Virus record (IMG/VR): IMGVR_UViG_3300050132_000142
Location: 1-51,860 of that record
Direction: 5' to 3' (one strand)
Source of the DNA: a virus
DNA length: 51,860 bases
This document shows, piece after piece, positions 1,939-34,784 of the stretch. Every line of letters starts with the position of its first letter. Positions within the stretch are counted from its first letter, which is position 1. The position numbers and the translations under genes were made by a program. Below the pieces are notes generated by a model. The model saw only the letters and a program-made list of their open reading frames with translations. It had not been told where the DNA came from and ran no database searches.

Positions 1939-3480
1939 ATGAAAAGGATACTGCTTGTAGTGGCATTTTTGACGGCCTCGGCGTGGGGCCAGGTAAGCAA
2001 TCCATCTATCGTGCTTGTCACTTCTGCTCCGTCTGGAAGTTGTTCCAGTGGTCTCCCTGACGAACAGGTGATTTCGACGGGAGTTATTTATACCTGCCAA
2101 AATGATACGTGGGGATCTCTTGCAACGGGTAGTTCTGGTAATGCCGTGACGGTAAATGGAGCATCCGTTCCCGCTAATGCTCAAGTATTGGCAACGAACA
2201 GCAGCAGCCAGTTGGTTTCTCTGTCTCCTGCGACCGATGCGCAGATGCTCACACTCGATCTAAACCGATCAGATAGCTACACCGAAGACGGAACAATCGA
2301 GAGGCCCTACAAGAATCTTTCTACATTGGTTATCCCCAGCACTGGATTAGCGTCGATATTCTCAAGTCCAAACGCAAGCTATTCAATCACGGGCGTTATG
2401 GCTCCTCCTGCAATTCCGTTGACTCTCTATGGAAATAATTCTACATGGACAACGAGCGGAGGACTGACCCTGACGGCCAAGACCATTTCCTATGATCTTA
2501 TCGACGGCGGTCCCGTAACGTACAACTACGCAAGCACGGATCGCAGTGAGAAGCATGGAGGGGCGTACCTTGGAAGCGTAAACCTTGCTCAGGGTTATCT
2601 TCACGCATTCGGCTCAAATCTTAGCGGAAACAGCAACACCTTTACTGTTGGAGGGGCTTCAACAGCCGCATTGCTTTATGGCGAGGCAATCACGGGTAGC
2701 CAGAAGATTGCATCTGGCGGCGCTGGCGCTTTAATCGCTCTCTATAGCCCCAATATGACGAAGAGCAGCGGTTACAACGTCGATATGACCAATGGTGGTC
2801 AGTTGCTCTTTAGCGGTGGGATACTGAACACAGCGGCAGGAACTGCGAACATCTATCTTCCTACTGCCAATTCCCCCTCGACGTTTCACGCGATTAGCGG
2901 CCTGATTGTTGGGACCGGAACAGGCGTGAACTGCGTGAATGGCACGACTACATATGTCGCCTATGGTTTTAACCTAGCACCGGTTTCAAATTGTACATTC
3001 ATTCCCGGCTATCAAGGGCCGACAAACTTTTTAGGTAACATCACAACGCCCACTGTATTATCTGGCGCATCCCAAGGTGGTTCTGTCCCCTCAGTCAATA
3101 AATTTGTAGTGCCGTACACCCTATTTACGGCAGCCGCGACCACACAGACAGTGACAATCAGCACTCTCCCGGCACGGTCAAAAATAACAGGTATCACTGC
3201 CGACCACTCGGTAGCATTTGCTGGCCCGTCCGTAACTGCCCTGGGTTGCACGGTGGGCGGTACGTCTGGCGTGTCAGCATTTTTGGGCAGCATAAATGTG
3301 TTTGCAACGGCAGGCACAGGCTGGCTCGATGGCGGTGGTTGGACCTCTGGCAATACCCAGGCTTCGCAGCCGCTAACAGTGACTTGCACGGCTACGGGAA
3401 ATAATCTAGGCAACGGCTCAGTTACGTCGCTGACATCGGGTAGCATGGAAATCTGGGTATCAGTGGTGGTGCTGCAATGA
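1939..3480 (+). CDS. Tail fibre/spike-like protein with a Sec-type signal-peptide-like N-terminus (513 aa from ATG 1939)
   Basis: ATG 1939 is preceded by ggag. N-terminus is MKRILLVVAFLTASAWGQ. Composition is Ser/Thr/Gly/Asn-rich, repetitive and beta-rich. The track start 1882 is less likely. Confidence 0.6.
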   Translation: MKRILLVVAFLTASAWGQVSNPSIVLVTSAPSGSCSSGLPDEQVISTGVIYTCQNDTWGSLATGSSGNAVTVNGASVPANAQVLATNSSSQLVSLSPATDAQMLTLDLNRSDSYTEDGTIERPYKNLSTLVIPSTGLASIFSSPNASYSITGVMAPPAIPLTLYGNNSTWTTSGGLTLTAKTISYDLIDGGPVTYNYASTDRSEKHGGAYLGSVNLAQGYLHAFGSNLSGNSNTFTVGGASTAALLYGEAITGSQKIASGGAGALIALYSPNMTKSSGYNVDMTNGGQLLFSGGILNTAAGTANIYLPTANSPSTFHAISGLIVGTGTGVNCVNGTTTYVAYGFNLAPVSNCTFIPGYQGPTNFLGNITTPTVLSGASQGGSVPSVNKFVVPYTLFTAAATTQTVTISTLPARSKITGITADHSVAFAGPSVTALGCTVGGTSGVSAFLGSINVFATAGTGWLDGGGWTSGNTQASQPLTVTCTATGNNLGNGSVTSLTSGSMEIWVSVVVLQ

Positions 3481-4457
3481 GAGATAACCCACGTCGATTG
3501 CATCTATCTCCATACAATGCGCACTATTTTGTTGATCCTACAAACGGCTCGGACACCAATGCGGGGACCACGCCGGATGCTCCGATCAAAACGGTGCAGC
3601 CACTTATCGGTGTTGACCTATCGAGCGACTACAGGTGGATAGCCCTAAAATTGTCCGACGGCTGGCACTGGATGGACACATTTAAATGCCCAACCACGGC
3701 GGGGCCTGTGGCCGGTAATTTTACCTGCACCCTGACAGGCGCTACAGTGCAATGGCTGTACGGTGACGGGACGTATGGGGTCACAAACGCACCAAACAAA
3801 TCCTACAGCGACAACAGCACAAAAACCGTCATTGGATTTTGTGTCAGTGCTGGCGGTACATCATTGACACTAAACAACTGTAACTACGTTTCGTTCAGTT
3901 TGGCAGACCTACCAGCAGGATTGACGGCTTTGTCCTGCTTTGGCGACCCGCTTATTACGGGGAGTTTTGCATATTTACCTGATGGATTGACGAGTTTGTC
4001 CTGCTACACCTCCACACTCATTACGGGCAATATCGCTGACCTACCACATGGATTAACTCTTTTGAACTGCTCGAACGACCTACTCATTACAGGAAACCTT
4101 GCAGATCTGCCAACAGGATTGACGTATTTGTACTGCTACAGCGACCCACTCATTACAGGTCCGGTTGTTAGTCGCCCATACATCAATTTTGACACCCACA
4201 ATTGCTCGGCATTGACCACCTACACTGCCGGGGCGTTCTCCACACAAAAGAGCCTAACTCCTGTGAATCTGACTAACTGCAACCTACCGCAGGCGGCGAT
4301 TGATAACATACTGGCTGATTTGGTAACTAGCCTGAGCATTTCTGGGCGCGTGACCTGCGTTGTGTCACTAGGCGGGACAAACGCCGCGCCATCGTCAGCA
4401 GGGTACGCCAGCAAATCAACGCTCGTTTCGGCGGGTTGGACAGTCACCACCAATTAG
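3477..4457 (+). CDS. Leucine-rich-repeat-like protein in the tail module (326 aa)
   Basis: ATGA overlap with the upstream gene. Four tandem 23-aa repeats of the form LADLPxGLTxLxCxxxxLITGxx. Confidence 0.7.
   Translation: MRDNPRRLHLSPYNAHYFVDPTNGSDTNAGTTPDAPIKTVQPLIGVDLSSDYRWIALKLSDGWHWMDTFKCPTTAGPVAGNFTCTLTGATVQWLYGDGTYGVTNAPNKSYSDNSTKTVIGFCVSAGGTSLTLNNCNYVSFSLADLPAGLTALSCFGDPLITGSFAYLPDGLTSLSCYTSTLITGNIADLPHGLTLLNCSNDLLITGNLADLPTGLTYLYCYSDPLITGPVVSRPYINFDTHNCSALTTYTAGAFSTQKSLTPVNLTNCNLPQAAIDNILADLVTSLSISGRVTCVVSLGGTNAAPSSAGYASKSTLVSAGWTVTTN
3899..4165 (+). repeat. Four tandem ~69-bp coding repeats (LRR-like units)
   Basis: Repeated gacctaccaNNaggattgacNNNtttgtNctgct...attacgg units read in sequence. 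Confidence 0.7.
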
Positions 4458-4465
4458 GAGGACAC

Positions 4466-4711
4466 ATGCTAGCAATCGCAACAAACACCGTGAACGGGAT
4501 GCAAACCAACAGCGGCCCAGTACCACCGCAGGAGTGCTGGCGGATGGTCTGGACTGATGCGCAGCAAACAACTGGGGATGAGGTGACATGTCTGCTCGAT
4601 TCAACCGGCACAACCACAACGCAGGATCATTTGTATTGCGCGACAACGCGGCAAGAGTGCGCTGATTACGCGGCCACGCTGGGAATGTACGTACCGGATG
4701 ATGCAGAATAG
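4466..4711 (+). CDS. Hypothetical protein (81 aa)
   Basis: ATG 4466 with SD aggagg 5 nt upstream. In frame with track ORF 4436-4711. Confidence 0.5.
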   Translation: MLAIATNTVNGMQTNSGPVPPQECWRMVWTDAQQTTGDEVTCLLDSTGTTTTQDHLYCATTRQECADYAATLGMYVPDDAE

Positions 4712-4792
4712 TAGTTGTTCCAACATTCACGTTAGGAACGGTAACGGCTTAAGGAAATATCACTGCGTGAAGAGTTGACTGAGGAAAAAGTT

Positions 4793-6295
4793 ATGCCAAC
4801 ATTTTCATGGCTCACACAAAACTCCGCAATTGCAGCATTGCAGTCGCGGCTTAACAACTCTTCACTTTGGACGACTGCGGAGTTGTGGCAGTACATCACG
4901 GAATCTCTTCGTCACTTTAACGGCCTGTGCGAGCAGTGGAATTCCACATTCAATATCCAGAACGCAAATGGACAATGGATTAACACTGGAACGATGGCAG
5001 GTTCTCCACGGTTAAGGACGGTCACTGACCAGTATCTCTATGGGCAGATGGCCTCTATGCTGTTGGAGCCACCGCTTGTTTCTGGCGCATGGGCAGGTTC
5101 CAGCCAGTTCAATCTTGGGAATCTTCAGAATGCTCTTCAAAAGAGAACGCAGGAAGTAATCCAGCAGACCTCGTGCAATATTGCACAACTCTCTCCTATC
5201 AACGCAACTACCGGTGTACGAAATGGTTACGTTCTGGATGACACGGTCCTAGAGCCTCGTAGAAACCGTTTCTTGGCGCTAATGGCTCAAACTACCGCAA
5301 CAGCATCCTCTGGTTCGTCCACGGCCTCCTTAGGCTCGGCAGTTGGGGTTGTAGTGGGACAGGCAATCAGCGCAATAGGAATCCAGACAGGCACCTTCGC
5401 CACTTCGGTATCGGGGAACGTAGTTGGTTTAAGTTTGCCTACTACCGCTTCACTAATAGGAACGGCAATACAGTTCTACCAGCCATATTTATTGACGCGA
5501 GAAGATGTGCTGTCTTTCCAGTCCTTCGAGCCGCAATATCTCCAGACGGTCGGATACCCTCAGTCGTGGGCAGTTGCCAGTGAGCCTCCTCTATCATTCG
5601 ATGTGGACATTGCACCGACAGCACCGGGATACTTCGACATGCTGGCGCTTCAGTCTGGCCCCACATTTTCACCTCCTACAGCTTCCCTGTTAGGAGTTCC
5701 CGACGATTGGTCGATGGTCCCGATGTACGGGGCGCTTGCAGACGTTCTAGGGCAGGAAGCAGAGTCGACAGACAACGCTAGGGCGTCATACTGCTTGGAA
5801 CGCTATACCGAACTTATGGAGATGATGAAGAAGTCGAATTGGCTGCTTCAGACGCTCATCAACCAGACGGTATCGCGCCCAGTCGCGCTGGCTGATATGG
5901 ATGCACTGGCAGTGAACTGGCAGGAATCCCAAGACAATCTCCCGGCAGTAATTGAGGCCGGTCCAGACTTCATCGCTCCCTTGCCGGGGAATGGAAATCT
6001 TCTCAGTGTGACTCTGGTCGGCAACGCTCCATTGCTGGACCAGACAGGGACATACGTCCAATGCGGTAGGGATGATTGGGACGCAGTTTTGAATTACGCT
6101 CACCACGTCGCCTCGTTTAAAATGGGGAATGATGGGTTTCAGGCTACAACGCCGATGCTAAAAGCGTTCTATCAGTTCTGCGCAGATCGAAACAAACGCT
6201 GGTCAACCCAGGGAGTTTTTGTGAAATACCTTCGCTCAGAAGGAAGAAAACAGGAGGTTGCGAGTCCAAGATGGGAAGCCAAAGAGACGCAGTAA
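4793..6295 (+). CDS. Hypothetical virion protein (500 aa)
   Basis: Long ORF. ATG 4793 with gagga 7 nt upstream. The track start 4775 is a TTG. Confidence 0.7.
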   Translation: MPTFSWLTQNSAIAALQSRLNNSSLWTTAELWQYITESLRHFNGLCEQWNSTFNIQNANGQWINTGTMAGSPRLRTVTDQYLYGQMASMLLEPPLVSGAWAGSSQFNLGNLQNALQKRTQEVIQQTSCNIAQLSPINATTGVRNGYVLDDTVLEPRRNRFLALMAQTTATASSGSSTASLGSAVGVVVGQAISAIGIQTGTFATSVSGNVVGLSLPTTASLIGTAIQFYQPYLLTREDVLSFQSFEPQYLQTVGYPQSWAVASEPPLSFDVDIAPTAPGYFDMLALQSGPTFSPPTASLLGVPDDWSMVPMYGALADVLGQEAESTDNARASYCLERYTELMEMMKKSNWLLQTLINQTVSRPVALADMDALAVNWQESQDNLPAVIEAGPDFIAPLPGNGNLLSVTLVGNAPLLDQTGTYVQCGRDDWDAVLNYAHHVASFKMGNDGFQATTPMLKAFYQFCADRNKRWSTQGVFVKYLRSEGRKQEVASPRWEAKETQ

Positions 6296-11303: not shown

Positions 11304-11450
11304 TCAAGTACCGCTAGCTAAAGCAGGCGGCTTGCAACTAAATCATGCGAAACCTTGCACAACTCGTCGCGTTTGGCTGCTTGACATGCAGCCCTGCCGC
11401 GTTCCCTAAGGTTGACGGCAGCGTTAATGTCCGCGTTGGCTCTATACCCG
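11304..11450 (-). ncRNA. Predicted omega (right-end) RNA scaffold overlapping the tnpB 3' end. Boundaries not determined.
   Basis: Family rule: the omega RNA derives from the tnpB 3' end plus the right end. Only 14 nt separate the tnpB stop from the neighbouring gene. Local hairpin GGCTGC-ATGTCAA-GCAGCC at about 11378-11396. The non-conserved C-terminal tail suggests ORF/RNA overlap. Confidence 0.3.
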
Positions 11451-12451
11451 CAAGAGCGGCACACGAAAACCGATTGAGAGAGGCGATTGGCTTTTTCAGT
11501 ATGACCACATTGAGAGCATTCACGGCTGGAGTTCCTTGGGTCCACAAGAATCAATTGGACTCCAGCAGTGATGCACTTGTATGTGATGAACTGTTTCAGT
11601 TGGTCAAACGCCCAGGAATGCAGGACGGTACGCTGCGGGAGCCTAGCCTTGATTCGTTCCCTGATGCCCTTGAGTTCTTCAAGCACCACGGCACGATTCG
11701 TGCATTTAGCTTTCGTAACGACCTGCTTGGAAATGCAGTGATTCACGTCTTTTGCGAAGCGGGCTTCGCGCCCAGATTGCTTTTTGAGAAGACGCTTGCA
11801 GCTATGCGTTCCCTTCTTTTGCAACTTTGCTCTCAGGTGACGATGACGGTAGCGAATTCCTTTCACTTGAGAGCCGCTGAAACTTTGTCCGTCAGAGTCG
11901 GAAAGAATCTCTGTTATACCAAGATCGCAGCCGAGGGAGTCATCAGGTGGATTAGGTTCTGGAACGTCATTGCGAAGAACGAGGTTAACGTAAAGCTCTT
12001 TGGATTGACGGTCAAGGCAAAGAGCACCGGCAGTAGGCTTCTGTCCTTTCAAAAGGCTGCGTTGATAGTTCCCGATTGCCAACTTGACTTTGATGCGTCC
12101 ATTAACGGTAGACAGGCTGACAGACTCGGACTTCTCAAGAAAGCGAAGCAAGTCCTTGTCAAGGTCCGCGCTGGTTGGTCCAAAGTAGGTTGGAGTCTGT
12201 TTCCCTTTACCGAAACTGGCAGCGACGCGGGCAATTGCACGAACGGCATAGTTGCTGGTCAGCCCGTATTGTTCTTTAATTTGGTAGTAGCAGATCTTGT
12301 GCAGAGCAAACTGAGCACGAATATTTTCTTTGTTGGAAACCGCAAGAACGTCATTGCATGCAGCGGCAAACCTTTCCAACGTCAAGAGCAAAGAACTCCT
12401 CTGTTCTTCCGTTGGTTGGAGCTTGCATCGCACTGTCTTTACGGATTCCAT
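11318..12451 (-). CDS. tnpB: TnpB (OrfB) RNA-guided RuvC nuclease, 377 aa, apparently intact
   Basis: RuvC-I is LGCDLGITEI. RuvC-II is AVVLEELKGI. Zinc finger is CSQCGHTEKANRLSQSVFVCRSCGYRANADINAAVNL, carrying RuvC-III ADINAA. The N-terminus RCKLQPTEEQ is typical of the family. Confidence 0.85.
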   Translation of the reverse strand: MESVKTVRCKLQPTEEQRSSLLLTLERFAAACNDVLAVSNKENIRAQFALHKICYYQIKEQYGLTSNYAVRAIARVAASFGKGKQTPTYFGPTSADLDKDLLRFLEKSESVSLSTVNGRIKVKLAIGNYQRSLLKGQKPTAGALCLDRQSKELYVNLVLRNDVPEPNPPDDSLGCDLGITEILSDSDGQSFSGSQVKGIRYRHRHLRAKLQKKGTHSCKRLLKKQSGREARFAKDVNHCISKQVVTKAKCTNRAVVLEELKGIRERIKARLPQRTVLHSWAFDQLKQFITYKCITAGVQLILVDPRNSSRECSQCGHTEKANRLSQSVFVCRSCGYRANADINAAVNLRERGRAACQAAKRDELCKVSHDLVASRLL

Positions 12452-12544
12452 GAATTCATCCTACCACTAAACAGTTCAAACTTCAAGAAAGGACGATGCG
12501 ACTCCTCTGCCGCCTAAAGTCAGCGGTCCCCTCGCACAAAATCC

Positions 12545-29895: not shown

Positions 29896-31530
29896 ATGAC
29901 TGGTACCCTATTTGAAACTAAATCACGAGCACTGTACCCTCTTCGTTGGTATCAAGAGCCATCAATACCAACCTTACGAGCCGCGCTCAAGGAAGGTAAT
30001 CTAAAGTCCGTTATACAGGCACCTTGCGGCTATGGGAAAACCTTGATAATGGCATACCTAGCATCTATGTCAATGAAAAAGGGTAATCGGGTGTTGGTTG
30101 CTACACCCAGAATTTCCCTTACCGACCAAACATATGAATCATTTGAGGAACAGGGTATTCGAGACATGGGAGTTCTGCAAGCCGATAATAGGCGTACTAA
30201 CCCTATGGCGCAATTGCAGATCGCCTGTTTTGATACTCTTTACAAGAGAGAGAAAGAACTACCAGATTTTGGTTTGGTACTCATTGATGAGGTCCACTTA
30301 GCAGATGCTCGAATGTGGGAACTCTTAAAACGCTGGAGGGTAGCTCTTTCTTTTACGGCTACTCCGTGGAGTAAGGGACTCGGTTTGCACTTCAGCAAGC
30401 TCATTGTGCTATCCACGATCAACGATATGCTTGAGTACCACAAGAAAGACCCGTCAGTCGGACTTGTGCCAATCAAAGGCATTGGCCCCAAGCCTGAATT
30501 CCTGCAACAGATTGAGCATCTAAAGACTGGACAGGACGGAGATATTCAGGAAGATGCAGCTCAACACTTCATGGATAAAACAGAAGTCGTTGCTGACATC
30601 GTTGATACTTGGATGCGCACCCGTCAAGAGGGAAATCATCCAGGCGATAGGACGTTTGTATTTGCGCGGAGAAGAATTACAGCAGTCCACTTCCAAGAGG
30701 CTTTTGCAGCGCGGGGAATCAAGTTCGACTATATCGACGCCTTCACTTCAGATCGAAGTCCCATATTTAAACGATTCCGCGCAAAGCAGACACAGGGGAT
30801 TGTCAGCGTTGGATGTCTATCGACGGGAGTAGATGAGGATGTTCGCTGCATCGTTGATGCCGCACCGCGCAAGAATCAGGCAGACATTGTACAGGCTCTT
30901 GGGCGTGGTATGCGACCGGCTGAAGGAAAAGAATTTTGCTACCTGTGCGATCACGTTGGCAATGCGAACCGTTTTGGATGGTTTGCAGACATCTATCATG
31001 ACAAGCTGGACACCACACCTCCGCACATCAAGGGAAGCGCCTACGAGCAAGAAGAGGCCACTCCTACCGAGGTCAAGCGCAAACAATGCGCTGTCTGCCG
31101 TGGATACTTGCCGCGCGGCGCGTTCAAGTGCCCCACCTGCGGCAACGTGATGGTGATAGACGACACTGTAACCATCGACGCGGAATTGGTAGACCTTCGC
31201 AAGATGAAGGCCGAGAAGAAGGTCAAGAGAGAATTAGCTGAAAAAGAGAAAGCAGCTAGAGCAGAGAAGAAAAAGCAGGGTGAGCCACAAGCGTTCTATT
31301 CTGGATTGATCGACTTTGCAGAGCGCCGAGGATTCAAGGACGGATGGGCATGGCACAAATACATTGAAAAATATGGGCAACCACCGACAGGATTGAACAA
31401 GGTTCCTATGACCCCGCGCAAGATGGTAAAGGATTTCATCAAGGAATCAGCAAGAAAGTGGCGACAGCAGCAGAAAGCCAACGCACCCAAACCAGCAGCA
31501 GAACCGAAAGTATATCGAGGAGAATTCTGA
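29896..31530 (+). CDS. SF2 DEAD/DEAH-box (DEVH) helicase with a C-terminal zinc ribbon (544 aa)
   Basis: Motif I APCGYGKT, motif II LIDEVH, motif VI QALGRGMR, zinc ribbon CAVCRGYLPRGAFKCPTCG. Confidence 0.8.
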   Translation: MTGTLFETKSRALYPLRWYQEPSIPTLRAALKEGNLKSVIQAPCGYGKTLIMAYLASMSMKKGNRVLVATPRISLTDQTYESFEEQGIRDMGVLQADNRRTNPMAQLQIACFDTLYKREKELPDFGLVLIDEVHLADARMWELLKRWRVALSFTATPWSKGLGLHFSKLIVLSTINDMLEYHKKDPSVGLVPIKGIGPKPEFLQQIEHLKTGQDGDIQEDAAQHFMDKTEVVADIVDTWMRTRQEGNHPGDRTFVFARRRITAVHFQEAFAARGIKFDYIDAFTSDRSPIFKRFRAKQTQGIVSVGCLSTGVDEDVRCIVDAAPRKNQADIVQALGRGMRPAEGKEFCYLCDHVGNANRFGWFADIYHDKLDTTPPHIKGSAYEQEEATPTEVKRKQCAVCRGYLPRGAFKCPTCGNVMVIDDTVTIDAELVDLRKMKAEKKVKRELAEKEKAARAEKKKQGEPQAFYSGLIDFAERRGFKDGWAWHKYIEKYGQPPTGLNKVPMTPRKMVKDFIKESARKWRQQQKANAPKPAAEPKVYRGEF

Positions 31531-34500
31531 TGAACGTTATAAACGGAGAGGAAGTAGAGATGTCGCCATTCGCTGTTATGGGAGCGGAGATGATCGACCC
31601 AATGGAATTTAGCTACGAGAGGTTTCTTGAAAGCAAACGGTTCACGCCGATTATATCCGGTTTGACTACCGTTCCTCCGCTGAATCCATCCATGTTTCCG
31701 CATCAGCGCGATGTGTGCTCCTGGGCGCTACGCCTTGGCCGAGCCGCGGCGTTTCTTGGAACCGGCATGGGGAAGACGCTCATTGAGGAAGAGTGGGCGC
31801 GCGTCGTGTCAGAGCATACAGGTATGCCGGTCCTGATTCTCGCGCCTCTGGCCGTGGCTTATCAGATGGTCACAGAGGGCACGAAGTTCGGCATCGAAGT
31901 GAAGTATTGCAAAGACTCGTCAACCATGGAAGATTCTCGCATCATCGTGACGAACTATGAGCGCATGGGAAACTTCGAGCCGTCTGACTTCGCGGGAGTG
32001 GTGCTTGATGAGTGTTTCGCAAAAGGCACTAAAATTGATACTCCTGGCGGTAAGAAGAATATTGAAGACATACGCGTAGGAGATGATATTCTTAACTGTG
32101 TAGGGATTGACACTGTTCAAGACATACACAGGAGAGAGGTTCCTTATGCCGCGTTGGTCAAAATCGGTGGTACCAGTTTTATTGCCTCCCCAAATCATCC
32201 CACCTTCACACAGCGTGGATGGGTTGGGGCACAGCATCTGCGCCCAGGTGATTACGCACTGGGAACAGGAGCGGCAGTGTCTTTGGTGCGGGATTCGGTT
32301 TGCTCCAAAGTATCCCGCTCAGTTCGGCCAGAGGTTTTGCGGGACATCCTGCTCAGCGAAATGGCGGATGAGCCAACCGGAGCAACTTGCGAAGGTTCAC
32401 AATCCAACGGTGGCGGCGAAGCGAGGAGCGAAAAGGTCTGCATGGTTGGCGTCGGGAACTCCGCAAGCGATAGCGGAACTCAAGCGCATAACCGAGTTGA
32501 ATCCTACCAAATCAGCGGCTACGCGGCTCAAGATTTCCATCCGATTGAGAGCCATGAAGCACAAACCTTCCGTACCTGGCGGGAATGGTCGGGGGATGAC
32601 TATCGCGCAGTCGATGATGATGGATGCTCTTGGCTCAGAATGGATAGCGGAATATGCCGTGTCTCTGGGTCCACGAAAAGTAGGCTATCCATCGCACTAC
32701 AAACTCGATTGCGGGAATCCGAGGCTGAAATTAGGAATAGAGGTGGATGGAGTCTCGCACAACATGGAATCCCGCAAACTGGAGGACAGAAAGAAGGAGT
32801 CCATGCTGAGTTCGTTAGGGTGGACAGTGTTGAGATTCTGGAACAAGGAGATAGTCGATTGGAGCAACTCAGGGATGCGGACGGGAAGCTCTATTTCTAC
32901 GATCTTGGCGCAACACGGCATCCAAGTTACTCCGTCGCGGGCTGCTTAGTTCACAATTCCAGCATCCTGAAGTCTTTCGATGGAGCGACTCGATCCGCAC
33001 TCATTGAAGCGTTCAAGGATACGCCGTACCGGCTCGCTGCGACTGCCACACCCGCTCCGAACGATCACATGGAGCTAGGCAACCATGCGGAGTTTCTGGG
33101 AGTCATGACGGCTACTGAGATGCTTTCCATGTTCTTTACGCACGACGGCGGAGAGACACAGAAGTGGAGGCTTAAGGGCCACGCACGGGCAGAGTTCTGG
33201 AAGTGGGTTTGCTCGTGGGCTGTCAACATCCGCAAGCCTTCAGATGTAGGGTATGACGACGGTCCATTTATCCTTCCCGGACTGGTCTACCATGAACACA
33301 TCGTGGACGTAGACACGCCGAGCGAAGGGATGTTGTTCGCTATGCCTGCCGAGACGCTGGGAGAACGACTGGCGGCGAGACGGTCAACTGTCGATGATCG
33401 GGTGGCTGAGGTCAAGGCCATCGTGGAAGACGAACCAGCCGCGACTTGGCTTATCTGGACGAATCTCAACCGGGAGAGCGAAGCGGTAACTAAGGCGATT
33501 GGGAGCGTGGAGTTAACTGGCTCAGACACGCCAGAAGTGAAGGCTACTCGGTCACTGGAGTTTGCACAAGGAAAGATCAAGCGCATGGTTTCCAAGGCTT
33601 CCATCTTGGGTTTCGGTGTGAACTATCAGGTTTGTTCACACATGATCTTCGCTGGAGTGAACGATTCATGGGAGGGATTTTTTCAGGCAGTTCGACGTTG
33701 CTGGAGATTTGGTCAGGATGAACCCGTCCACGTTCACATCATTGCAGCATCCACAGAAGGAAACGTCCTCGAAAATCTGAAGCGTAAAGAAAGGGAGTCA
33801 GAGCAAATGGCAGAAGAGATGCAGGAAAACATGCAGGACTTGACGCGCATGAATCTGGTAGGCACCGTGCGCAGCGAATCGACATACGAGCGCGAAGTGA
33901 AGACTTCCGAAAACTGGACAATGCACCTTGCTGACTGTGTTGATCTTGCGCGGGAACTTCCCGATGATTCGATCCACTATTCGGTCTACTCTCCTCCGTT
34001 CGCTTCGCTCTACACATACAGCAATTCGGAGCGGGACTTGGGAAACAGCAAAGACCATGACGAGTTCTGGAAGCACTACCGTTTCCTCATCAAAGAGCAG
34101 TACCGCGCACTGATGCCAGGGCGTCTCGTGTCCATCCACTGTATGAACCTTCCCACGTCAAAGGTCCGGGATGGTCACATCGGCCTACGGGACTTCCGTG
34201 GCGAGATCATCCGCGCATTTGAAGAAGTTGGATTCATATATCATTCCGAGGTCTGCATCTGGAAAGATCCAGTGACTGCCATGCAGCGCACCAAGGCACT
34301 CGGGTTGCTCCACAAGCAGATTCGCAAGGACTCGACCATGAGCCGACAGGGCGTTCCTGACTATCTTGTTACCATGCGCAAACCGGGGGAGAATCCCGAA
34401 CGATGCGCACACACTTCCGAGCAGTTTCCTGTTCAGTTGTGGCAGCAGTATGCCAGCCCGATTTGGATGGACATAAACCCATCGGACACACTGCAATATC

Positions 34501-34784
34501 GTTCAGCTCGGGAACACAACGACGAGCGCCACATTTGCCCACTTCAGCTCGAAGTGATCCGCCGCGCCATTAAACTGTGGACGAATCCCGGAGATGTGGT
34601 TTGGAGTCCGTTTGCTGGTATCGGTTCTGAAGGGTTTGTTGCTCTGGAGATGGGGCGCAAATTCCTTGGATCGGAACTGAAACCTTCCTACTATCGGCAG
34701 GCGTGCAAGAATCTCGACCGCGCTCTGGCAAGTGACACTGGACTGTTTGCAAACACAGAAGACCAATTAGACGATGAAGGATGA
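31530..34784 (+). CDS. SNF2-type helicase fused to a beta-class N6A/N4C DNA methyltransferase, interrupted by a 315-codon intein
   Basis: TGATG-coupled ATG 31530. Helicase motifs GTGMGKT, VVLDE|...|SSILKS, ATATPAPND and QAVRRCWRFGQDEPVHVH. Methyltransferase motifs YSPPFASLY (motif IV) followed by VWSPFAGIGSEG (motif I). Confidence 0.85.
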   Translation: MNVINGEEVEMSPFAVMGAEMIDPMEFSYERFLESKRFTPIISGLTTVPPLNPSMFPHQRDVCSWALRLGRAAAFLGTGMGKTLIEEEWARVVSEHTGMPVLILAPLAVAYQMVTEGTKFGIEVKYCKDSSTMEDSRIIVTNYERMGNFEPSDFAGVVLDECFAKGTKIDTPGGKKNIEDIRVGDDILNCVGIDTVQDIHRREVPYAALVKIGGTSFIASPNHPTFTQRGWVGAQHLRPGDYALGTGAAVSLVRDSVCSKVSRSVRPEVLRDILLSEMADEPTGATCEGSQSNGGGEARSEKVCMVGVGNSASDSGTQAHNRVESYQISGYAAQDFHPIESHEAQTFRTWREWSGDDYRAVDDDGCSWLRMDSGICRVSGSTKSRLSIALQTRLRESEAEIRNRGGWSLAQHGIPQTGGQKEGVHAEFVRVDSVEILEQGDSRLEQLRDADGKLYFYDLGATRHPSYSVAGCLVHNSSILKSFDGATRSALIEAFKDTPYRLAATATPAPNDHMELGNHAEFLGVMTATEMLSMFFTHDGGETQKWRLKGHARAEFWKWVCSWAVNIRKPSDVGYDDGPFILPGLVYHEHIVDVDTPSEGMLFAMPAETLGERLAARRSTVDDRVAEVKAIVEDEPAATWLIWTNLNRESEAVTKAIGSVELTGSDTPEVKATRSLEFAQGKIKRMVSKASILGFGVNYQVCSHMIFAGVNDSWEGFFQAVRRCWRFGQDEPVHVHIIAASTEGNVLENLKRKERESEQMAEEMQENMQDLTRMNLVGTVRSESTYEREVKTSENWTMHLADCVDLARELPDDSIHYSVYSPPFASLYTYSNSERDLGNSKDHDEFWKHYRFLIKEQYRALMPGRLVSIHCMNLPTSKVRDGHIGLRDFRGEIIRAFEEVGFIYHSEVCIWKDPVTAMQRTKALGLLHKQIRKDSTMSRQGVPDYLVTMRKPGENPERCAHTSEQFPVQLWQQYASPIWMDINPSDTLQYRSAREHNDERHICPLQLEVIRRAIKLWTNPGDVVWSPFAGIGSEGFVALEMGRKFLGSELKPSYYRQACKNLDRALASDTGLFANTEDQLDDEG
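32013..32957 (+). mobile_element. Intein (Hint domain) inserted in helicase motif II
   Basis: Starts with Cys (CFAKGTKIDT). Block B is SPNHPTFT. Ends ...YFYDLGATRHPSYSVAGCLVHN followed by Ser. Excision restores DESSILKS. Confidence 0.85.
32146..32949 (+). CDS. Vsr/DUF559-like PD-(D/E)xK endonuclease with an N-terminal zinc ribbon, encoded in the +1 frame inside the intein (267 aa)
   Basis: SD GGAGAGAGG 6 nt before ATG 32146. Zinc ribbon CLWCGIRF...FCGTSCSAKW. C-terminus YKLDCGNPRLKLGIEVDGVSHNMESRKLEDRKKESMLSSLGWTVLRFWNKEIV. Frame is open for 280 codons. Confidence 0.65.
   Translation: MPRWSKSVVPVLLPPQIIPPSHSVDGLGHSICAQVITHWEQERQCLWCGIRFAPKYPAQFGQRFCGTSCSAKWRMSQPEQLAKVHNPTVAAKRGAKRSAWLASGTPQAIAELKRITELNPTKSAATRLKISIRLRAMKHKPSVPGGNGRGMTIAQSMMMDALGSEWIAEYAVSLGPRKVGYPSHYKLDCGNPRLKLGIEVDGVSHNMESRKLEDRKKESMLSSLGWTVLRFWNKEIVDWSNSGMRTGSSISTILAQHGIQVTPSRAA

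Follow-up and report, generated by a model that had tools for sequence, protein, structure and literature searches.

A predicted intein in helicase motif II of a viral helicase-methyltransferase gene, with a Vsr-like nuclease gene very probably overprinted on it in the +1 frame

The stretch of DNA considered here (the window) is a complete contig of 51,860 nucleotides (nt) from the Joint Genome Institute collection (JGI/IMG; IMG/VR record IMGVR_UViG_3300050132_000142), and nearly all of its long open reading frames (ORFs) are located on the plus strand. One of them encodes a superfamily 2 (SF2) helicase fused to a DNA methyltransferase; its helicase motif II is interrupted by an insert with the motifs of an intein, and within this insert a second gene, whose product resembles Vsr-type nucleases, can be read in the +1 frame. 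The host gene and the parts of the intein are listed with the basis of each assignment in brackets (aa, amino acids; pLDDT, predicted local distance difference test):

31530..34784, plus strand: host gene, SF2 helicase fused to N6/N4 DNA methyltransferase (ORF, Pfam, PHROG)
32013..32957, plus strand: predicted intein, 315 codons in the host frame, in motif II between DE and SSILKS (splice motifs, intein-less homologs, identity block with contig L045)
32013..32290, plus strand: Hint N-terminal lobe, intein aa 1 to about 93, blocks A/B (AlphaFold2 pLDDT 77–92, Foldseek, variation at host wobble positions)
32291..32807, plus strand: host-frame linker, intein aa about 94–265, a stop-free spacer (pLDDT 25–64; identity about that of the third frame)
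32808..32957, plus strand: Hint C-terminal lobe, intein aa 266–315, blocks F/G, ending in VHN (pLDDT 81–90; host-frame identity 70%)

The host ORF extends from 31458 or 31530 to 34784; the product given by the source, where the gene is labelled "DNA modification methylase", starts at 31530 and is a precursor of 1084 aa. Its Pfam domains are ResIII/DEAD/Helicase_C and N6_N4_Mtase (expectation value (E) 9e-18), and it matched PHROG families 16/62 (helicase) and 67 (methyltransferase). A megablast comparison of the host gene with GenBank phages gave no match.

The insert translates as CFAKGT...SPNHPTFT...CLVHN and is flanked by VVLDE and SSILKSF. A first-pass annotation of the window, made from the sequence alone, had read it as an intein with Cys1, block B SPNHPTFT and a terminal HN followed by Ser, and its coordinates and motifs were all found to be correct. 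The Cys at position 1 is invariant across 9 aligned inteins and at every DE/C junction (the slash denotes the point of insertion or splicing); in block B (S59-P-N-H62) the residues S59, N61, H62 and P63 are invariant in the same alignment, and the terminal H314-N315, here followed by Ser, appears in relatives as HN/C or HN/S, with a few cases of SN/C. Excision of the insert restores motif II, as had been proposed: 101 of the 120 best host homologs are intein-less proteins of about 740–780 aa with an uninterrupted DES[SA]I[LM]K, and about 15 of the 120 contain an insert of 313–318 aa at exactly the same point. The site is polymorphic: L127, an allele which is 86% identical in nt sequence, lacks the intein and possesses the intact sequence GTGCTTGATGAA/TCCAGCATCCTGAAG.

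An AlphaFold model of frame 0 consisted of two confident beta-rich lobes, at residues 1–90 and 266–315, and of a low-confidence region at residues 95–265. Foldseek matched the model with probability 1.0 and E 1.5e-5 to 6bs8, 6qaz (gp41-1), 6rix and 2in8; the solved inteins among the matches are the M. smegmatis DnaB class-3 intein, gp41-1, MchDnaB-1 and a RecA mini-intein. Judging from motifs and model, the segment is a class-1 intein in motif II, for which splicing is predicted. A family search of the host frame between the lobes (aa 94–265) gave no match, in agreement with the first-pass expectation that no LAGLIDADG/HNH domain would be present in this frame; the in-frame endonuclease of a canonical bifunctional intein was not found there. 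The host gene is one continuous ORF and is not split in the manner of a fractured gene.

In the +1 frame the insert contains the following features:

32146..32949, plus strand: nuclease ORF, +1 frame, 267 aa plus stop, unannotated in the source (ORF, Pfam)
32130..32139, plus strand: Shine-Dalgarno (SD)-like sequence AGGAGAGAGG, 6 nt before the nuclease ATG (sequence; Hint codons H-R-R-E)
32278..32352, plus strand: zinc ribbon CxxC...CxxxC, residues C45, C48, C65 and C69 (conservation in 36 homologs)
32314..32553, plus strand: helical region, nuclease aa 57–136 (AlphaFold2 helices, pLDDT 84–97)
32638..32868, plus strand: DUF559/Vsr-like catalytic domain, aa about 165–241, with D188/E199/D201/H205/D214 (Pfam, PDB profile, Foldseek)

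The product had been assigned to DUF559 at first sight, and Pfam PF04480 was indeed obtained over residues 184–238 with E 5e-10 (39.6 bits, cutoff 20.6). A profile search of the PDB returned 3hrl, a DUF559 protein, with E 6e-10. The model of the nuclease, built with 36 homologs, had a pLDDT of 85.6; residues 1–40 (pLDDT 48–61) were its only poor region. Its best structural match by Foldseek was 3r3p, the catalytic domain of I-Bth0305I (probability 0.99), followed by 3hrl (0.98) and by Vsr itself (1vsr, 0.87). Invariant in the 36 nuclease sequences are GGNG, D188, E199, D201, H205, D214, G225-W226, R230-F231 and N233, and also C45, C48 and C65 of the zinc ribbon, C69 being nearly so (at least 90%); the ribbon shows weak similarity to zinc fingers of the FCS/MYM type. 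A zinc ribbon and a Vsr/DUF559-type nuclease are thus supported, as was first suggested. The NUMOD3-like helices suggested together with them were not supported, since a Pfam search of the +1 product gave no NUMOD match; the helices at aa 57–136 follow the Cys4 zinc ribbon. Weak and uninformative PHROG matches were obtained for both the intein and the nuclease. An identical nuclease protein is not present in a collection of 15 billion proteins, which contains the host protein of the same contig.

I-Bth0305I is a Vsr-like homing nuclease from a group I intron in recA, with N-terminal NUMOD2/helix-turn-helix motifs (2011, PMC3239194; PDB 3R3P). The two enzymes appear to share a plan, an N-terminal DNA-binding region followed by a C-terminal Vsr-like catalytic domain, and their catalytic residues are equivalent: D188, E199, H205 and D214 align to D196, E206, H213 and D222 of I-Bth0305I, with an offset of one residue at the His. 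The helical region of the window nuclease is presumed, by this analogy, to bind DNA. In contrast to the intron-encoded I-Bth0305I, the window nuclease begins with a Cys4 zinc ribbon and is overprinted on an intein. These data support the identification of the +1 product as a Vsr-like nuclease of the EDxHD type, and cleavage of DNA is predicted.

The +1 frame is open from 32107 to 32949, and the ATG at 32146 has a Shine-Dalgarno sequence of its own, as claimed at first pass; the conserved Hint residues H-R-R-E-V-P-Y-A encode both SD and ATG (32130–32148). This context recurs in L007 and L008, and in the branch of DEAH helicases an SD sequence GAGG lies within conserved D-E-V codons. An alternative start, GTG at 32248, is located just 5' of the zinc ribbon, in a position like that of the starts of distant relatives; with the ATG at 32146 the protein has a leader of 44 residues of low confidence. 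In relatives the start is found 2–54 codons before the first CxxC, and in nearly all loci an ATG, often with an SD sequence, lies ahead of the zinc ribbon. A promoter and terminator scan of 31400–33200 yielded 2 promoter-like sites, with 1.0 expected, and no terminators; an internal promoter is therefore unsupported.

The layout is not confined to the window. A tblastn search with the nuclease gave matches in 40 GenBank phage records, and every match fell within a coding sequence (CDS) labelled helicase (or hypothetical). The same +1 phase is seen in two Vibrio phages (CP-T1 and 1.088.O), in Pseudomonas phage MR14 and in Corynebacterium phage phi673; in these four the helicase ORF contains DE/CF[PAV][AK]GT...VHN/CHH, and a nuclease ORF of 212–261 aa starts at about intein codon 86–89 and stops 8–44 nt before the end of the intein, with no separate CDS annotated over it. 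The +1 phase was found in 36 of 40 IMG/VR loci, in 18 of 19 full-length loci from genomes and metagenome-assembled genomes (MAGs) and in 77 of 80 metagenome loci. Altogether the layout was thus seen in about 130 loci fetched from viral, genome and metagenome collections, some contigs from more than one of them (L151, for example, is the L009 contig), and metagenome relatives amount to at least 411 loci. Among these loci, and among 120 listed nuclease homologs (155–330 aa), no in-frame fusion of Hint and nuclease was encountered.

Phage phi673 (L003) contains in addition, at 2023–2970 on the minus strand, a stop-free ORF of 315 aa antisense to the intein; it is probably a by-product of the composition which is set by the two sense frames.

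We consider it very probable that the element is a mobile class-1 intein in motif II, and that its homing endonuclease is encoded by a gene of its own, overprinted in +1. The overprinting of a free-standing type of Vsr/DUF559 nuclease gene on an intein, which the first-pass annotation had proposed, is borne out by the Hint folds, the Vsr-like model of the +1 product and the recurrent phase. Ribosomes in the host frame would produce the 1084-aa precursor, in which a stop-free linker of some 170 aa, corresponding to the nuclease gene read in –1, would connect the Hint N-lobe (up to about aa 93) with the C-lobe (aa 266–315); the lobes would then fold together and splice, and DESSILKS would be restored. 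Internal initiation at the SD sequence and ATG at 32146, or possibly at GTG 32248, would yield the free nuclease. By analogy with I-Bth0305I, the nuclease should cut intein-less helicase alleles at the coding sequence for motif II, and repair could copy the whole unit of 945 nt into the cut allele.

Mobility of the element is suggested by a comparison of assemblies. In an independent assembly from the European Nucleotide Archive (ENA; L045) the intein is identical in 945 of 945 nt, and the run of identity, 32013–32959, is exactly the intein; the exteins have 52% (N) and 63% (C) aa identity, or about 55–65% on the nt level. In the NCBI contig L128 the intein is identical in 944 of 945 nt, and the flanks differ by 8.6% and 14%. 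With 0–1 nt differences in host genes which are 9–45% diverged, the element looks recently mobile. Nearly identical inteins, a mini-intein and many intein-less alleles are together what one would expect of a homing element that is active and is met at various stages of its life cycle.

Several states of the element were found within one nuclease family: overprinted copies (about 130 fetched loci, with some duplicates), fractured (L033), free-standing (L029, L061, L163), a relic (L009) and a mini-intein (L046). The mini-intein (protein P0125; L046, 1909–2490) has 194 aa and occupies the same site; both Hint lobes and a remnant of the zinc ribbon are kept, and an in-frame deletion from about AAKRG to KLxSLGW has removed the catalytic E/D/H and most of the linker. 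In L033 and L034 the gene is fractured (L033, 2235–4643) into N-extein plus Int-N (2235..3014), nuclease (2911..3672) and Int-C plus C-extein (3552..4643); the intein halves share one frame and the nuclease is in +1. In L029 (2956–5087) and L061 (2818–4747) the free-standing nuclease lies directly upstream of an intein-less helicase. L009 (2857–3660) has a free-standing nuclease, 52% identical to that of the window, without a helicase nearby; its former host frame contains a decayed Hint C-lobe, LYFFNFEIKRHTNYTI, and 5 stops against 11 expected, and it looks like a nuclease copy that escaped recently from an intein.

Two irregular loci may be mentioned here. The helicase of L029 is broken in two by a frameshift located precisely at motif II (...IIIDE / GHHAAAP; ORFs 3563..3934 and 3897..5087), which could be a scar of cleavage and repair, a resistance mutation or an assembly error. 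L132, a soil contig of 1.7 kb and a close relative, has one stop in the host-frame linker (FRAWG, stop, WDG), where Gln is normally found; this may reflect an error of sequencing, an inactivation in the recent past or a split intein in the making.

T-even phages possess nucleases for intronless homing and marker exclusion, which the free-standing copies beside intein-less helicases resemble. The nuclease could thus be active mainly in phage-phage competition or exclusion, by cutting the helicase genes of rivals, or in DNA repair, and not in classical homing; the position of the L029 and L061 copies would fit such a role, and DUF559/Vsr relatives are proteins of repair or of unknown function. 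We regard this as improbable, since the spreading unit coincides exactly with the intein. Moreover, cutting rival alleles and being copied into them is homing, so that this explanation differs in emphasis and not in mechanism.

The evidence for an overprinted gene comes further from the two reading frames themselves. Keeping the nuclease protein fixed, synonymous codons were permuted and stops in the host frame were counted. The window has 0 stops in the host frame, against 8.5–9.7 expected, and none of 5000 shuffles left it open; the third frame has 19 stops. The claim that two open frames of this length exceed chance was thus upheld. The same was true for 48 intein loci, all with 0 host-frame stops where 2–13 were expected; the probability of an open frame was at most 0.002 in most of them and at most 0.09 in the most GC-rich ones, and their third frames contained 2–27 stops. 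In free-standing copies the corresponding frame has about as many stops as expected (L029, 31 against 29.4; L061, 9 against 13.6), as has the split form L033 (35 against 35.0), and in generic bacterial DUF559 genes the number was also as expected. The open host frame is therefore not an intrinsic property of the nuclease sequence.

Variation at the three codon positions was compared between the window and L005–L008 (nuclease identity 52–57%), with the following result along the intein; the last line gives the junction at which both frames are conserved:

Hint N-lobe zone: host wobble position varies most (0.64); identity 46% in the host frame, 24% in the nuclease frame
Nuclease core zone: nuclease wobble position varies most (0.50); identity 40% in the host frame, 61% in the nuclease frame
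Last ~35 codons: host wobble position varies most; identity 70% in the host frame, 49% in the nuclease frame
32815..32844, plus strand: doubly constrained junction of about 10 codons (both motifs conserved in 52 loci)

Along the intein, the frame under constraint is at first 0, in the middle +1, and finally 0 again. In the overlap the nuclease frame is under purifying selection, with a variation of 0.26–0.32 at the other codon positions of the core; towards the end the Hint blocks F/G dominate over the nuclease tail. In the core the untranslated third frame has an identity of 37%, close to that of the host frame, and the host frame there would therefore appear to be selected only against stops. 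A linker with a function of its own in the host frame was considered and rejected for the same reason, and motifs of the linker which look conserved (LRDILLSEMAD, FRAWGQW, NRNRGGW) were found to be shadows of the nuclease motifs FCGxSCSAKWRM, PSVRGGNG and IEVDG. At the junction a single run of nucleotides encodes both the nuclease residues L-G-W-T-V-L-R-F-W-N and, in the host frame, the Hint strand R-V-D-S-V-E-I-L-E; across the 52 loci the motifs are L-G-W-x-V-x-R-F-x-N and R-V-[DE]-S-[VI]-E, with high information content at all three codon positions. Selection on both readings, as postulated at first pass, thus applies to these approximately 10 codons, whereas in the core the host frame is kept free of stops and nothing beyond that.

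The conservation in the core bears also on the possibility that the +1 ORF is no more than a relic, in decay or without expression, and that the element is in effect an immobile mini-intein with a long linker. Degenerate forms exist, namely the mini-intein of L046 and the single linker stop of L132, and expression of the nuclease is something that we infer. Still, the most variable position of the core is the nuclease wobble, identity in the nuclease frame exceeds that in the host frame, the residues for catalysis and zinc binding show no or hardly any variation across 36 homologs, and the intein is nearly identical in diverged hosts; a relic is thus quite unlikely.

Another possibility is programmed recoding, by which ribosomes would shift to +1 after the N-lobe and back before the C-lobe, yielding a conventional Hint-nuclease-Hint protein and no free nuclease. 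Such a fusion is geometrically possible, because in all loci the nuclease ORF starts right after block B and ends 8–44 nt before the end of the intein. However, an open host frame would not be needed for it, yet this frame is stop-free in more than 48 loci; an ATG precedes the zinc ribbon almost throughout; and in free-standing and fractured relatives this protein has a gene to itself. A slippery site was not identified, although a systematic search was not made. Programmed frameshifting was rejected mainly on account of the open host frame, and its probability seems very small.

Two compensating indel errors, which might have displaced the in-frame nuclease domain of a canonical intein, would give the frame 0/+1/0 pattern of constraint in a single sequence, but such an artefact has next to no probability, since the same 945 nt recur with 0–1 differences in independent JGI, ENA and NCBI assemblies (L045 and L128, which rule out sequencing error as the source of the layout), since the +1 phase is present in about 130 fetched loci, some of them duplicates, and in four GenBank phages, and since errors would not produce host frames devoid of the expected stops.

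Several points weigh against a mobile intein with an overprinted endonuclease gene. The start codon of the nuclease is ambiguous, and its first 44 residues, which are of low confidence and coincide with Hint block B, are interrupted in L006; an SD-like motif is present in only about 60% of relatives. The E-values of the Foldseek matches of the nuclease are modest (0.02–0.6), and in sequence it resembles I-Bth0305I only weakly (E about 0.4–1). The Pfam Hint models score just under their curated cutoffs (Hint_2, 27.8 against 28.4). The block of identity ends at the borders of the intein without a co-converted flank; homing does not usually leave such a pattern, although the divergence of the flanks is very high. 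Expression, splicing, cleavage, the cleavage site, the start of the nuclease and homing itself are what we infer from the data given above.

The first-pass annotation had considered this architecture undescribed, which is not the case for its general form. Out-of-frame LAGLIDADG nucleases are known from the cyanobacterial dnaX intein, in a "+2ORF" (Phillips et al., bioRxiv 10.64898/2026.09.14.751524; the dnaX intein with an out-of-frame LAGLIDADG also in Gorbalenya 1998, as cited), and for actinobacteriophage inteins, LAGLIDADG and VSR-like nucleases were reported on the antisense strand and endonuclease VII-like ones in frame 3 (Gosselin et al., bioRxiv 10.1101/2025.01.02.630785); the only hosts of such non-canonical inteins listed in the latter work are DNA polymerase, minor capsid, terminase and thymidylate synthase. 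The window intein shares with these the overlap of a nuclease ORF with the region between the splicing blocks, an open host frame with a low-confidence or disordered linker, purifying selection on the nuclease frame, a sporadic distribution and signs of ongoing transfer. It differs in that its nuclease is Vsr-like/DUF559, on the same strand and in +1, and that the host site is helicase motif II; the 3' end of the nuclease is co-encoded with Hint blocks F/G, with the doubly constrained junction; and the family is large (about 130 fetched loci, with some duplicates), comprising phages of Vibrio, Pseudomonas and Corynebacterium and many MAGs.

A second comparison is with fractured genes, in which the halves of a split intein enclose a free-standing nuclease gene of the Vsr-like or GIY-YIG type (Dassa, London, Stoddard, Schueler-Furman and Pietrokovski 2009, PMC2677866). 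Strand and order are the same (N-extein/Int-N, nuclease, Int-C/C-extein), as are the Vsr-like type of nuclease, the overlap of its 3' end with the start of the Int-C coding region, and phage genes of DNA metabolism as hosts; L033 and L034, relatives of the window nuclease, have exactly the fractured form. In contrast, the host frame of the window is uninterrupted, its intein is contiguous and predicted to splice in cis, and neither a non-coding spacer nor stop and start codons delimit intein halves. The ShiLan-type insertion in DNA methylases of actinophages, which conceals an HNH endonuclease in another frame (Arsenault et al. 2025, PMC11855218), is likewise a stop-free in-frame insertion in a phage gene of DNA metabolism on which a nuclease is overprinted, and ShiLan is actively homing; it has no splicing domains and stays as a loop in the protein, whereas the insertion in the window, whose Hint lobes are complete, should be removed by splicing. 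The combination of a Vsr-like nuclease, the same-strand +1 frame and helicase motif II appears to be new; no report of it was found, and none of the abundance and the co-encoded junction of helicase intein and +1 nuclease, in a literature in which subscription journals were covered thinly, so that absence is no proof.

The family may be of interest beyond this case. Gene callers skip the overlapping nuclease ORF, and GenBank phage records label the relatives of the window gene "helicase", so that this class of mobile elements should be under-counted; out-of-frame homing nucleases of inteins have been regarded as rare curiosities, and here one lineage comprises roughly 130 fetched loci, some of them duplicates. 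It is also a clean natural example of constraint which alternates between frames, with the other frame merely avoiding stops. From a practical point of view, the intein would seem to accommodate a linker of some 170 aa, for which confidence in the predicted structure is low, and the nuclease would be a compact Vsr-type enzyme, aimed presumably at a highly conserved helicase motif.

The multiple states within one nuclease family provide a dataset on the entry of endonucleases into inteins and on the origin of split inteins (model of Dassa 2009). Tentatively, and with some doubt on our part, the free-standing, fractured and full-intein forms might be linked by a single origin, the fusion of a free-standing Vsr-like nuclease targeting motif II with a mini-intein. 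The GWxVxRF/Hint-strand junction could then have locked nuclease and splicing element into a mobile unit that can no longer be separated, before a spread to helicases of unrelated families, DEAH ("DECHH") and SNF2-like ("DESSILK"). If this is true, the order of events in the evolution of intein endonucleases would be directly testable by phylogeny, and the long stop-free linker might perhaps tune splicing or couple the nuclease to translation of the host gene.

Directly upstream of the intein-bearing gene, at 29896–31530, is a second SF2 helicase gene (ResIII/DEAD/Helicase_C) with the motif LIDEVH and no intein; according to the ORF coordinates its stop codon shares one base with the ATG at 31530. 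Elsewhere in the window most large ORFs are without a Pfam match. At 11318–12517 two ORFs on opposite strands overlap nearly fully, 11345..12517 (plus strand, 390 aa) and 11318..12451 (minus strand, 377 aa).

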